64,000 nucleotides of DNA from a virus (IMGVR_UViG_3300033073_001635:1-64000); one strand, 5' to 3'. Positions 3,559 through 17,180 are shown, counted from the stretch's first letter. Numbers and translations: made by a program. Notes: a model not told the origin generated them from the letters alone.

Positions 3559-3943
3559 TCCAACAACGCAATGTGCAAGAGAATACTGGTATAAATTAAA
3601 TGATATTATGCCTTTTCTATTAAGCGCTTGTATTGGAAATCATGAAGCTTCATTGTTTGTTTCGGATTATTTAATTAAAGTTCATCATGACTTAGATGAA
3701 TTTATTACAGACGAATTTGGAAGATGCAAAAATTGTAAATCTATTTATTATCAAAGCAAATTATGTTCTGATTATAATTTTAAACAAGAATGCGAACTAG
3801 AAAAGAAACCAGATTTTGATGATAGACTTGCTATCATTGACCTTCCGGTGCCACCAAGCAAGCGTCCAAGAACACTTCAAGAAATTGAAGATTGGCGTTA
3901 TTATTTAGAACTACTAGAAGACATATTGAAAGACGAAGAATGA
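3485..3943 (+). CDS. hypothetical protein, possible Cys4 metal site
   Basis: 152-aa ORF with CKNC...C...C; fills the gap between recA and dnaE. Confidence 0.55.
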   Translation: METKDRIKLRKLFRTPEPKAVVKNDPTTQCAREYWYKLNDIMPFLLSACIGNHEASLFVSDYLIKVHHDLDEFITDEFGRCKNCKSIYYQSKLCSDYNFKQECELEKKPDFDDRLAIIDLPVPPSKRPRTLQEIEDWRYYLELLEDILKDEE

Positions 3944-5199
3944 GTTTTGTTCATTTACATGTACATACAGAATATTCACTATTAGATGGTATAAATAGAG
4001 TAGATACATTACCAAAACATGTTAAAAATATTAATCAAACAGCAATTGCTATGACTGATCATGGCAGTGTGTCTGGTTCTTATAAATTTTTCAAACATTG
4101 TAAAAGTAACGGTGTGCAACCAATTATTGGAATGGAAGCTTATTATACTTGTGCTGATAGAACTGTAAGAGAAAAAGATGATCTTGAAGAAAATTATTAT
4201 CATCTTGTTTTATTAGCAATGAACAATAAAGGATTACATAATCTATATAAATTATCTACCTTCTCTTATACAGAAGGTATGTATCACAAACCAAGAATAG
4301 ACGATGATTTACTTGCACAATATAGTGAAGGTATTGTTGCTACTACTGCATGCTTGGGTAGCAGAGCTAGTCAACTTATATTACGTGGTAGATCAAATGA
4401 TGCAGCCAAACTTATTGATCATCATAGGGCTATCTTCAACAATAGGCTACTTGTCGAATTACAACTTCATCACAATGAAGAACAACGACTTGTGAATCAA
4501 GAGCTTATTAAAATTGCTAATAAATATGATTATCCTATTATCTGTACTAACGATTGTCATTACACTCATGAACATGATAAAGAACATCATGAAGCAGCTT
4601 TATGTTTACAAACAAAAACAAAACTTTCTGATCCTAAAAGATTTACTTTTGGCGAGATTAAAGTACACGTTGCTGATCATGATTGGATGTGGCAAGAAGC
4701 ACAACACTTAGGATTACCATATGATGCTATTTCAAATACTGTAGAAGTAGCAAAAATGATTAATTCTGATGATTATTTTTCAGATAGAATGAATCGTTAT
4801 CCAAAATTTAAAGAACTAAATGGAATGCAATCTTTTGAATATCTTGAAGTAGAAGCTAAACAAGGTTTATGGGAAAGGTTTCAAGGAATGCCTCCACAAG
4901 AATATAGAGATAGACTTGATCACGAATTGACTGCAATTAAACGTATGGGATTTTCAGATTACATGTTGGTAGTTGCTCAGTTTATGAATGGTGCAAGAGA
5001 ACGTGGTGTTTTACATGGTCCTGGTCGAGGCTCTGCTGCAGGTAGTCTTGTAGCATGGGCTCTTAAAATTACCGAAGTAGATCCTGTAAAATACAATTTG
5101 ATATTTTCTAGATTTTTAAATGAGGGTCGTGGTGCAACGCCCTTGATTTTTACACCAGAAATGAGTATAGAAGCTAGTAGGTTTATTATGCCATTCTAA
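3940..5199 (+). CDS. dnaE: DNA polymerase III alpha, fragment A (PHP domain plus the N-terminal palm segment)
   Basis: The true start is likely ATG 3940 (MSFVHLHVHTEYSLLDG). Motifs AMTDHG, TNDCHY, GPGRGSAAGSLVAWALKIT and FSRFLNEGR are present. It stops just before the PDxD motif. Confidence 0.93.
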   Translation: MSFVHLHVHTEYSLLDGINRVDTLPKHVKNINQTAIAMTDHGSVSGSYKFFKHCKSNGVQPIIGMEAYYTCADRTVREKDDLEENYYHLVLLAMNNKGLHNLYKLSTFSYTEGMYHKPRIDDDLLAQYSEGIVATTACLGSRASQLILRGRSNDAAKLIDHHRAIFNNRLLVELQLHHNEEQRLVNQELIKIANKYDYPIICTNDCHYTHEHDKEHHEAALCLQTKTKLSDPKRFTFGEIKVHVADHDWMWQEAQHLGLPYDAISNTVEVAKMINSDDYFSDRMNRYPKFKELNGMQSFEYLEVEAKQGLWERFQGMPPQEYRDRLDHELTAIKRMGFSDYMLVVAQFMNGARERGVLHGPGRGSAAGSLVAWALKITEVDPVKYNLIFSRFLNEGRGATPLIFTPEMSIEASRFIMPF

Positions 5200-5214
5200 A
5201 TATTAGGAGAAAAA

Positions 5215-5577
5215 ATGTTAGAACATAAACATATTATCATTAGAGCAGAAGTGAAAGAACCACCTTCCGATGTTGTTTTAACAGCACAATGGTTCAAAGA
5301 TTTAGTACAAGCAATTGACATGAAGATTCTTATGGGGCCTCATGTTACTTACTTAGATAAAGAAGGAAATAGAGGACTTACTGGTATTTGTGTTATTGAA
5401 ACATCACATATGGCCATGCATGTTTGGGATGAATGCAAACCAGGATTGATTGAATTAGATGTTTATTCATGTAAGGATTTTGATGCTCAAATTGTTTTAA
5501 ATGCTTTACAACAATTTAAACCAGTAAAAGTAGAACACATTCTACTTGATAGAAAACATACTATTGAACTTTTGTAA
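5215..5577 (+). CDS. speD: S-adenosylmethionine decarboxylase proenzyme family protein
   Basis: GLTGICVIETSHMAMHVWDE...LDVYSCKDF pyruvoyl self-cleavage signature; AGGAG SD. Confidence 0.85.
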   Translation: MLEHKHIIIRAEVKEPPSDVVLTAQWFKDLVQAIDMKILMGPHVTYLDKEGNRGLTGICVIETSHMAMHVWDECKPGLIELDVYSCKDFDAQIVLNALQQFKPVKVEHILLDRKHTIELL

Positions 5578-5579
5578 TC

Positions 5580-15399: not shown

Positions 15400-15875
15400 G
15401 TTTTCAACCTATTCCATATCTTGATTGTCATATTTGTGAAATTGAAATTCTTGAAACTTTAAATATTTCATCTAACACTATACCAGTTAATCTAGGTTCA
15501 ATTCTTGTAGATACGGGTGGACAAATTAGTGTGACAAACAACTATATTACTTTTCCAGCAAATATGGAATTTTTTGTAAAAGCAAATATTGTAGGTCGCG
15601 CTGCTACAACTACTGGTGTAACAGGTTGTAATCCTACATTTTTAGATTCTTCAAATGTTGTTTTAGATTATCAAGCAATTGGTCAAGCAGTTGCAAGAGG
15701 TGGTGGCGTGTGGTTTTCATCTGTAGATTGTTTTATGATGTTATTTTCTTCAACATCATCTCGTAGTGCAAGGCTCTCAATTGGTAACGTAAGTGTAGCT
15801 CAAGCAATTAATATTGAATACAATAGCGCAACAAGTTATATTCCAAATTCAACAATTACAATTTTATATAAATAA
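15396..15875 (+). CDS. putative fibre head, C1q/BclA-CTD-like (MSFQ start)
   Basis: Likely start ATG 15396 (ATGA overlap, GGAG SD). TIPVNLGSILVDTGGQISVTNNYITFPANMEFFV pattern. Confidence 0.5.
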   Translation: MSFQPIPYLDCHICEIEILETLNISSNTIPVNLGSILVDTGGQISVTNNYITFPANMEFFVKANIVGRAATTTGVTGCNPTFLDSSNVVLDYQAIGQAVARGGGVWFSSVDCFMMLFSSTSSRSARLSIGNVSVAQAINIEYNSATSYIPNSTITILYK

Positions 15876-15878
15876 ATT

Positions 15879-15986
15879 ATGCAAATAAAATCAAAAACTT
15901 TTATAGGTCAACAACCTGTATATGATATTAGTGTTGATTCGCCACATCATGACTTTCAATTAGAAAATGGTGTAGTCGTTTCAAAT
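15879..15986 (+). other. split intein C-half (IntC, 36 aa)
   Basis: MQIKSKTFIGQQPVYDISVDSPHHDFQLENGVVVSN: blocks F and G, terminal Asn, +1 Cys. Confidence 0.93.
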
Positions 15987-17180
15987 TGTTTCAACAAAGC
16001 ACATTCAGTTTCTTACTCTGTACTTACATATGTAACCGCTTATTTAAAAGCTAATTATCCAGTAGAATTTTTTACTGCGTTAATGAGTACTAGATCTAAA
16101 ACTTTACAACCAAAAACTTGGGCTGTTAAGGCTCCAGAGTATATTAATGAAGCAAAACATTTTGGGGTTGATATATTCCCACCTGATATTAATCGTAGCA
16201 GTTTTGAGTTTACTATTCACAATAATGAGATCTATTTTGGATTAAATGCAATTAGAGATGTGGGTGGTACTGCTGCTAAATATATTATTAGTGCACGTGG
16301 AAATACACCATTTAAAGATATCTGGGATTTTATTAATCGAGTAAATACTCAAAAAGTTAATACTAAAGTTTTTCAAGGTTTAGTCAAAGCAGGTGCATTT
16401 GATAAATTAGGATATGTGCGTTCAGAATTATTAGAAAATGTAGATTCCATTTATTCTTATTTAAAAGATATAGAAGAATTTAATCAAAGAAAATTAGACA
16501 TTATAGAACGAAACAAAAGAAATGAAGAAATATTACCTCTAATTGAAAAAAGAAATTTTTTAAGAAATGAGTTAGTAAAAGCAAAAAGAAAATTAATTAA
16601 ATCTCCAGATGATATTCAACTTCAAAATAAAATTACACAACTAGAAGAAGATTTACTTCCATTAGAAGAAATGGAATTGAAAAAAGCTGTAGATTTAAAA
16701 GAAAAAGAATTACCAGATTTACCAACTTTCAATAGAGTTAAAACCGTACCAATTAATTTAAAGGAAATCCTAGATCAAGCTTCTTATATCGGTTGCTATA
16801 TTGGTGGACATCCATTACATATGACAAATATAGATAGAGAAGATTTAGAATCTGTAGAAGAAAATTTTAGATATAAAGTAGCTGGAGTAGTTTTATCTCA
16901 AAAGATTCTCAATACTAAAACAGGCAAAAAAATGGCTATTTTAGAAATTGATGATTCTACAAAAGCTGCTGAAATTGTAGTCTTTCCTCAAAAATACGAA
17001 GAATATGCTACTTTACAAATTGAAGAAGGTGATATTATAATCGCTGAAGTTAAAGTAGAATCAATAGAACCAGATATAAAACTTATTGCAAATAAGTTTT
17101 ACAAACACCAATGGAATAAAGATGACGACATACAAGAAAACTTATCTATGGACTCCTCAAGAGGATCAAATCCTTTTTAA
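15879..17180 (+). CDS. dnaE: DNA polymerase III alpha, fragment C: split-intein C-half fused to fingers C-part, HhH and OB domains
   Basis: VYDISV...GVVVSN|CFNKAHSVSY, YLKANYPVEF, PPDINRS, FGLNAIRDVG, LVKAGAFD, and an OB-fold TKTGKKMA...VVFP. Confidence 0.95.
   Translation: MQIKSKTFIGQQPVYDISVDSPHHDFQLENGVVVSNCFNKAHSVSYSVLTYVTAYLKANYPVEFFTALMSTRSKTLQPKTWAVKAPEYINEAKHFGVDIFPPDINRSSFEFTIHNNEIYFGLNAIRDVGGTAAKYIISARGNTPFKDIWDFINRVNTQKVNTKVFQGLVKAGAFDKLGYVRSELLENVDSIYSYLKDIEEFNQRKLDIIERNKRNEEILPLIEKRNFLRNELVKAKRKLIKSPDDIQLQNKITQLEEDLLPLEEMELKKAVDLKEKELPDLPTFNRVKTVPINLKEILDQASYIGCYIGGHPLHMTNIDREDLESVEENFRYKVAGVVLSQKILNTKTGKKMAILEIDDSTKAAEIVVFPQKYEEYATLQIEEGDIIIAEVKVESIEPDIKLIANKFYKHQWNKDDDIQENLSMDSSRGSNPF

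Follow-up and report, generated by a model that had tools for sequence, protein, structure and literature searches.

How a replicative DNA polymerase can work when its gene is broken in two places is the question raised by a locus in IMGVR_UViG_3300033073_001635, a linear virus record of IMG/VR that is 113,340 bases long and estimated to be 69% complete. We analysed its first 64 kb (64,000 nucleotides, hereafter the window), in which open reading frame (ORF) calls and Pfam searches placed the domains of DnaE, in canonical order, on three ORFs of the same strand, A, B and C. Our answer, which we hold to be likely, is that the only DnaE of an uncultured phage of about 160 kb is a three-gene polymerase in which one break is bridged by trans-splicing and the other by non-covalent docking.

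Piece A matched PHP (1.1e-45) and positions 1-102 of 260 of DNA_pol3_alpha (7.3e-36), and it aligned with residues 6-400 of E. coli Pol III alpha; its frame is open from a TTG at 3892, and the ATG at 3940 is favoured by relatives. Piece B matched positions 100-260 of DNA_pol3_alpha, the fingers domain and, below threshold, Intein_splicing, and its best PDB matches were the DnaE proteins of Mycobacterium tuberculosis (Mtb), Thermus aquaticus (Taq) and E. coli (1e-57 to 1e-60). The first ~92 residues of B matched no family, and the catalytic strand PDVDID (nucleotides (nt) 6527-6544) begins only at residue 94. Piece C matched HHH_6 (3.3e-28) and tRNA_anti-codon OB (6.7e-8). The PHP domain, the palm with three catalytic Asp residues, the fingers, the HhH and the OB are thus all present in DnaE order across A, B and C, each of which has its own start and stop codon, and no single polypeptide makes up the DnaE. 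A first-pass annotation, made from the sequence alone, had described DnaE motifs running colinearly through three separate genes with unrelated genes in both gaps, and the ORF coordinates, the order of the Pfam matches and the 3 and 14-15 ORFs counted in gaps 1 and 2 bear this out (Table 1).

Table 1 Features of the split dnaE locus, in window coordinates (aa, amino acids; IntN and IntC, N- and C-terminal intein halves).
Feature	Coordinates	Strand	Description
dnaE fragment A	3940..5199	+	419 aa; PHP and N-terminal palm sub-domain with GPGRGS and RFLNEGR
A tail	5134..5196	+	residues 399-419, 21 aa, ATPLIF..EM....PF; one-piece DnaE lacks this tail
Gap 1	5200..6247	+	1,048 nt; three ORFs: 5215-5577, 5580-5924, 5934-6188
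Fragment B	6248..7855	+	535 aa; 92-aa head, catalytic palm, fingers, 96-aa IntN
B head	6248..6523	+	residues 1-92; small helical domain and NPHNSILLY..T.LTD.FDF motif; clade-specific
B extein core	6524..7564	+	residues 93-439; palm with PDVDID and KFD, thumb, fingers; ends FADY
IntN	7565..7855	+	B residues 440-535, 96 aa (nt 7565-7852) and stop codon; CLSGDT...TDDH...
Gap 2	7856..15878	+	8,023 nt; 14-15 same-strand ORFs
Gap-2 ORF	8285-9856	+	523-aa tail-fibre/decoration-like protein
Gap-2 ORF	11347-11754	+	peptidase M15
Fragment C	15879..17180	+	433 aa; 36-aa IntC, HhH, OB
IntC	15879..15986	+	C residues 1-36; terminates in VVVSN, with the +1 Cys of CFNKAHS next
C extein	15987..17180	+	397 aa; HhH and OB-fold C-terminal part of DnaE

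The three-piece layout is not an assembly artefact, as A, B and C are separate and in the same order in five other viral records of IMG/VR from different metagenomes, with identities to the window of 66-97% for A, 58-92% for B and 56-79% for C. Two relatives are rated 100% complete (158,462 bases, and 161,781 bases with terminal repeats). A second PF07733 locus was found neither in the 113-kb record of the window nor in these two complete relatives, where only A and B matched; an intact dnaE elsewhere, which the first-pass annotation had named among the findings that would speak against its reading, was not found.

We propose that B and C would first meet through their split-intein halves and be trans-spliced at FADY↓CFNK (the arrow marks the junction), giving an 836-aa chain of head, catalytic palm, thumb, fingers, HhH and OB. 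Piece A, with the PHP domain and the nucleotide-binding half of the palm, would then bind this chain non-covalently, and the active site would be composite, with GPGRGS and the RFLNEGR arginines coming from A and the three catalytic aspartates from B. The 21-aa tail of A and the 92-aa head of B would form an extra docking interface.

GPGRGS and the arginines of RFLNEGR are invariant in A across 35 homologues, and the PD.D.D and KFD aspartates are invariant in the homologues of B. In E. coli and Taq Pol III alpha, these motifs of A and B jointly form the nucleotide-binding and catalytic centre, and the active site of the phage enzyme would therefore be composite. When A was modelled together with residues 1-441 of B, the interface score ipSAE was 0.91, versus 0.11 for the best of the control pairs; of 80 solved complexes, 58 attained that mark, as did 2 of 110 mismatched pairs. 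The runs shared at least 92% of contacts, and the per-residue confidence (pLDDT) of the partners was at least 85. In the model, residues 395-417 of A lie against residues 27-51 and 60-70 of B, in the head, and 84-101, at the pre-catalytic strand (e.g., A402 with B65 and B87, A403 with B67), while A 351-366 is set, with low expected error, against the catalytic strand of B and the helix that follows it. The contacts between tail and head have no solved counterpart. The complex model, a prediction that may reflect likeness to one-chain DnaE, supports binding of A to B, including these tail-head contacts, and A probably docks non-covalently onto B, as the first-pass annotation had supposed.

A different arrangement would be that A and B-C are separate enzymes, B-C being self-sufficient with the head filling the palm and A being a stand-alone PHP exonuclease or phosphoesterase that is loosely, or not at all, associated with it. 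The B head structurally resembles the palm sub-domain of A, as described below, so B could in principle be structurally complete, and PHP domains act as proofreading nucleases in other DnaEs such as Mtb DnaE1 (PMC10634781). However, the head has neither GPGRGS nor the R..R pair, both invariant in A across the 35 homologues, which argues that A supplies them. Furthermore, A keeps 100 palm residues beyond the PHP domain under a ratio of nonsynonymous to synonymous substitution rates (dN/dS) of 0.03, and the model packs A 351-366 on the catalytic strand of B. We consider two separate enzymes to be unlikely.

At the other break, the ends of B and C closely resemble the two halves of a known type of intein. 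The best PDB matches of IntN were DnaE split inteins, namely the consensus intein 7qil (1.3e-6), Npu (4lx3/4qfq/4kl5) and Ssp (1zd7/1zde), and IntC matched 5ol7 (2.3e-5) and the Npu DnaE IntC chains 4lx3_B (9e-5) and 4qfq_B (~1e-4). On the N side, gfady↓CLSGDT aligned with kfaey↓ALSFGT of the Synechocystis (Ssp) precursor 1zde, in which Cys1 is changed to Ala, and on the C side the flank SN↓CFN is the same as in Npu; the insertion site is therefore the cyanobacterial DnaE site, FA(D/E)Y↓C...SN↓CFN. Cys1 directly follows the N-extein (GFADY↓CLSGDT in the window, CL.... in four relatives), the T-x-x-H of block B reads TDDH, TKEH, TPDH, TIDH and TPEH across the five genomes compared, and the terminal Asn is followed by the +1 Cys (VVVSN↓CFNKAHS in the window, SN↓C in 5 of the 5 genomes compared). 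The predicted spliced product, B(1-439) joined to C(37-433), has 439 + 397 = 836 aa, and homologues in which B and C are fused with no intein have 788-856 aa and read FA.Y-(A/G)FNKSH at the junction. All the catalytic residues of a DnaE-type split intein are present, in line with the matching halves noted in the first-pass annotation, and B and C are probably joined by a split intein of the cyanobacterial type.

If B and C instead stayed unspliced, the intein halves would serve only as a non-covalent dimerisation module, an idea to which the relaxed dN/dS of IntN (0.41) lends something. Against it, C1, T-x-x-H, the terminal N and the +1 C are all kept in five genomes at C identities of 56-79%, the dN/dS of IntC is 0.03, and the intein is closely similar to the highly active Npu and Ssp inteins. 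We therefore regard a purely dimerising intein as improbable and trans-splicing of B to C as the better account.

The A-B break looks quite different. Piece A ends in ...RFLNEGRG followed by the tail, the PLIF of which occupies the place of the catalytic strand PDxDxD. The tail is kept in relatives and in more than 30 A-type homologues, and phmmer extended the alignment of A through it over Taq DnaE 461-475. Apart from such weak extensions, tail and head lie outside the Pfam and PDB alignments, and both are conserved in relatives. The head is predicted to be helical (helices 4-13, 18-21, 26-35, 38-49 and 68-72), with a pLDDT of 83-94 within full B and of 84, with a predicted TM score (pTM) of 0.72, when folded alone; in a Foldseek search of PDB the head had no significant match. 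Taken together, A (PF07733 positions 1-102) and B (positions 100-260) run colinearly with a one-piece homologue, with no intein and no detected intron at the break. Rfam intron models gave no match at E<=1 in 3000-18500, and the same search found, as a positive control, a group I intron in a relative's copy of gene B (RF00028, 91.6 bits). We also considered an atypical split intein at this break, with the A tail as a short IntN and the B head as a long IntC ending in the conserved NPHN↓S, and rejected it because the head is confidently helical and not a beta-rich HINT fold, because tail and head are too short for a HINT domain, and because the A junction has no nucleophile and no intein match. 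The earlier statement that A and B carry no intein thus holds, and no intron was detected either.

Could A and B nevertheless be joined at the level of RNA or translation, by an undetected intron, trans-splicing or ribosomal bypass over gap 1? Group I introns do occur in the gene in relatives, and Rfam can miss introns that are divergent or bear an ORF. On the other side stand the absence of an Rfam match at E<=1 and the gap-1 genes themselves, whose content varies and of which speD has homologues elsewhere. Tail and head, moreover, are translated, under purifying selection and always terminal, and joining would need their removal. Such joining seems very improbable to us compared with docking of two finished proteins.

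In a distant phage (L008:8693-13212, 26-27% identity), DnaE consists of two pieces that part at the same point of the palm, with a ~75-aa tail, a ~35-aa head and two small ORFs in the gap; this tail and head differ from those of the window. Its pieces overlap in PF07733 positions 93-108. A degenerate split intein in this DnaE was considered and rejected, as neither site gave a Hint/intein match even at E<=1.

Measured against the closest relative (G004), the dN/dS of the exteins was 0.03 for the A core, 0.014 for the B core and 0.14 for the C extein; at the A-B break it was 0.11 for the A tail, which comprises only 21 codons, and 0.06-0.11 for the B head, and it was 0.03 for IntC. All pieces are under purifying selection. 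With PDVDID, KFD, GPGRGS and R..R invariant in relatives and dN/dS far below 1, the claim that the catalytic motifs are intact and not decaying stands. Fragmentation is a common route of gene decay, but a decaying dnaE in a phage replicated by the host polymerase is barely credible given dN/dS of 0.014-0.14, intact motifs and an architecture kept down to ~56% identity and in complete genomes.

How old are the two breaks? A profile of the head was searched against 1.84 billion representative proteins, and in 62 of 62 matches the head (residues 1-105) was N-terminal. The 27 full-length head matches comprised 20 B-C fusions, that is, two-piece enzymes, 3 proteins with IntN at FADY↓C and 4 with IntN four residues downstream, at GFNK↓C. 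A-like matches numbered more than 1000, with lengths of 230-734 aa on contigs of up to 200 kb, and among the matches listed 120 of 120 were A-sized pieces of PHP and palm. Even among relatives longer than A, the nearest are A-type pieces, and the nearest true one-piece DnaEs are bacterial, at no more than 44% identity. A quick tree built on the B core, with weak support, grouped the window and four relatives, all with the FADY↓C intein, in one clade (SH-like approximate likelihood-ratio test, SH-aLRT, 99), and the other intein-bearing sequences were scattered among intein-free ones. The distribution of heads and A pieces and the tree therefore point to an A-B break that is old, clade-wide and fixed and to an intein break that is later and patchy; in our scheme, the split intein would be a mobile element that entered a polymerase already divided in ancient times. 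This survey of related records, which the first-pass annotation had suggested, thus yielded two- and three-piece forms and differing cargo in the gaps.

The dnaE genes of this clade harbour further mobile elements. The second split-intein site, Y-GFNK↓CL.., occurs in the B-type homologues P0144, P0167, P0170 and P0176, and P0167 was sister to the intein-free P0165 on the quick tree, which suggests independent gains or losses of the intein. In A-type pieces of 762-817 aa (P0195-P0200), 64-72% identical to A, the PHP metal-ligand motif is interrupted by a full cis intein that includes a LAGLIDADG domain (TND↓C...HN↓CHY); P0196 and P0198, whose C-terminus aligned to the end of A, keep a tail of the ..ATPLIF..PF type, read directly in P0196 only. 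In one relative (L019:105-2393), gene B is broken exactly at the catalytic motif, GSPPD↓IDIDFD, by an insert of ~1.2 kb with a LAGLIDADG-like ORF of 300 aa as well as a group I intron (RF00028, E 1e-23, L019:1199-1570). About fifteen head-only ORFs of 80-98 aa were present among the library matches; about a dozen of them stop at or just after ..PD, and five of this dozen end in ..PPDC[IKN]. The head-only ORFs that stop at PD are probably the same exon 1 as in L019.

The two gaps hold genes unrelated to the polymerase. In gap 1, the first ORF is S-adenosylmethionine decarboxylase-like (Pfam AdoMet_dc 8e-13, phrog_3125), and the other two have no assignment from Pfam or PHROGs. This speD-like gene is 66-69% identical in nucleotides to the speD of Pelagibacter phages and is the sole part of 3892-7855 with nucleotide likeness to cultured phages. 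Across genomes, the content of gap 1 is speD with two further ORFs in the window and G004, a single small ORF in G001, and, in G002 and G003, three small ORFs unlike those of the window. Gap 2 of the window and G004 holds many small genes that are shared only in part, and in G001-G003 it holds ORFs of 516-1247 aa, several with strong tail-fibre or collagen-like PHROG matches; despite the differing contents, tail-fibre-like ORFs again occur in gap 2 of G001-G004. Unlike the gap contents, the flanks are syntenic, with recA upstream of A in every relative. At both breaks, islands of variable genes have formed. The first-pass annotation had seen the break points as landing sites for cargo that is then locked inside an essential locus; the strongly differing contents between syntenic flanks agree with its first part, and the locking-in is better kept as a conjecture. 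The conserved dnaE sequences on either side of the gaps may drive the exchange of cassettes, and in our scheme the gaps would have turned into islands between these flanks. A scan for promoters and terminators gave sites no more frequent than in shuffled sequence.

One gap-2 gene behaves differently from its neighbours. The ORF at 7858-8280 (MATGA/MATHANN start) lies directly 3' of gene B in 5 of 5 genomes, at 20-55% identity and with no family match, and it is the only gap-2 gene common to the whole sampled clade.

Where, then, did the head come from? A model of the head alone was compared structurally and exhaustively with 48,161 PDB representative chains, and C-family polymerases made up 7 of the 8 top matches. 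They included PolC 9qpc 821-966 (Z 5.5), Mtb DnaE1 7pu7 312-416 (Z 4.9, with a root-mean-square deviation of 4.2 over 89 residues), E. coli 5m1s 285-396 (Z 4.4) and PolC 3f2b 824-969 (Z 3.6). All 7 aligned over the palm segment immediately before the catalytic strand, which is the segment that A carries at its C-terminus. In phmmer alignments, B aligned from its residue 71 to E. coli 372 onward, and the alignment of A ran as far as E. coli 400 and Taq 475, so that in reference coordinates the two pieces overlap. These comparisons suggest that the A-B break resembles fission by partial duplication and not a clean cut. Whether head and tail arose by duplication-degeneration fission, with the docking by reciprocal complementation that this implies, seems to us an evenly balanced proposition. 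Tail and head would then descend, as decayed halves, from a partial tandem duplication of the palm segment: the good strand of B would be matched by good helices from A, and the decayed strand of A by decayed helices from B.

A more far-reaching version joins these points, and we put it forward only tentatively. After a partial tandem duplication of the palm segment, each fragment would have kept one functional and one decayed unit of helix bundle and strand; the good halves would make up the composite active site in trans and the decayed halves, B head and A tail, a heterodimerisation module. The dnaE flanks would act as homology arms, and the gaps as preferred sites at which co-infecting phages exchange tail-fibre and auxiliary cassettes.

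Several results weigh against a trans-spliced and docked polymerase of this origin. The Z-scores of the head (3.4-5.5) are under the safe level of the tool for helical domains, and profile-profile comparison (hhalign) of the B head with the C-terminus of A found no similarity with profiles of 5 rows or of 31/35 rows; the duplication origin therefore rests on a structural signal that is weak but very specific. As A and B are halves of a split gene, the pass of the complex model may stem from likeness to, or the model's memory of, solved one-chain DnaE. At the B-C break, Intein_splicing scored 20.5 bits on B versus a cut-off of 35.8, a score to be expected for half an intein, of which B has only the N part, and the dN/dS of 0.41 shows that IntN evolves fast. 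Finally, there is no homing endonuclease in either gap to account for the breaks: Pfam and PHROGs gave no HNH, GIY-YIG, LAGLIDADG or Vsr-like match in gap 2, and no mobile endonuclease was found in gap 1 of the window or in the gap ORFs of relatives.

Each of the two mechanisms has precedents. The naturally split DnaE intein of cyanobacteria, known from DnaE-n and DnaE-c of Synechocystis and Nostoc (Wu et al. 1998; Caspi et al. 2003; both cited in PMC2677866), is alike in host protein, insertion site and the sizes of the halves (~96-aa IntN, 36-aa IntC). In cyanobacteria, however, the halves are at unlinked loci, whereas those of the phage lie on one strand 8 kb apart, with virion- and lysis-like genes in the gap, and the phage gene has a second break that is free of inteins. 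Judged from its sequence, the B-C part adds a new, phage-borne member to the DnaE split-intein family. In marine metagenomes, Dassa et al. 2009 (PMC2677866) described 'fractured genes', phage-like replication genes, including three DnaE loci, with both split-intein halves in one locus, and also a single SbcD-like gene that is fractured without an intein and bears a 25-aa tail and a 9-aa head where it is broken. In the split-intein loci, the spacer of 1-2 kb contains a free-standing homing endonuclease, whereas the window has a spacer of 8,023 nt in which none was found, and their DnaE insertion sites are not cyanobacterial, whereas that of the window is.

For the A-B break, the closest parallels come from T4-like phages. 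NrdA-a/NrdA-b of Aeromonas phage Aeh1 have unique C- and N-terminal tails at the fracture that are needed for assembly (Crona et al. 2011, PMC3045599), the halves of the split B-family polymerase gp43A/43B of phages 25 and 44RR co-purify and polymerise (PMC2988022), and gp39/gp60 of T4 is a further essential phage enzyme encoded in two genes (PMC2988022). As in the window, an essential enzyme is divided between two genes close to its active site, and neither intein nor intron is involved. The T4-like splits, however, arose recently, are confined to particular lineages and go with either a mobile endonuclease or a short untranslated spacer, whereas the A-B split affects a polymerase of the C family, is fixed throughout a large clade and has no detected endonuclease. 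Unlike the T4-like tails, the 92-aa head resembles a decayed duplicate of its partner's own palm segment. In a literature search that covered part of the journals, neither a C-family polymerase split without an intein nor a three-piece phage DnaE was described, and the combination of the two mechanisms appears to be new.

If our account is correct, this locus encodes a natural replicative polymerase whose active site comes from two polypeptides and whose third piece is ligated by an intein. It would bear on how fission next to the catalytic centre can be tolerated by an essential enzyme and on whether decayed duplicate segments can become docking modules. With its two-piece and three-piece forms, two intein sites, cis intein and group I intron, the clade provides a natural series in which such events could be dated and put in order. 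The Npu and Ssp tools gain a new relative in this intein, the tail-head pair is a candidate orthogonal protein-docking module, and the variable tail-fibre-like cassettes inside an essential gene bear on how phages exchange host-range genes. These points are relevant to specialists in inteins, phage mobile elements and polymerases.

Upstream of the polymerase, recA is interrupted as well (1544-3558), with RecA profile positions 5-198 in 1544-2173 and 196-260 in 3100-3558. Between them, 2232-2849 encodes a 205-aa ORF with a helix-turn-helix (HTH) and a REase_MTES_1575/homing-endonuclease-like domain, and no group I intron model matched the recA gap (1400-3700, E<=5). The gene is contiguous in G001, G002, G003 and G005 and interrupted only in the window and G004, between which the inserted ORF is 98.5% identical and the C part of RecA 86%; these identities suggest a recent invasion. 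At the left edge of the window, the open-ended ORF 1-1119 matched the C-terminal specificity domain of Type ISP restriction-modification enzymes (PF18135, 7e-43).

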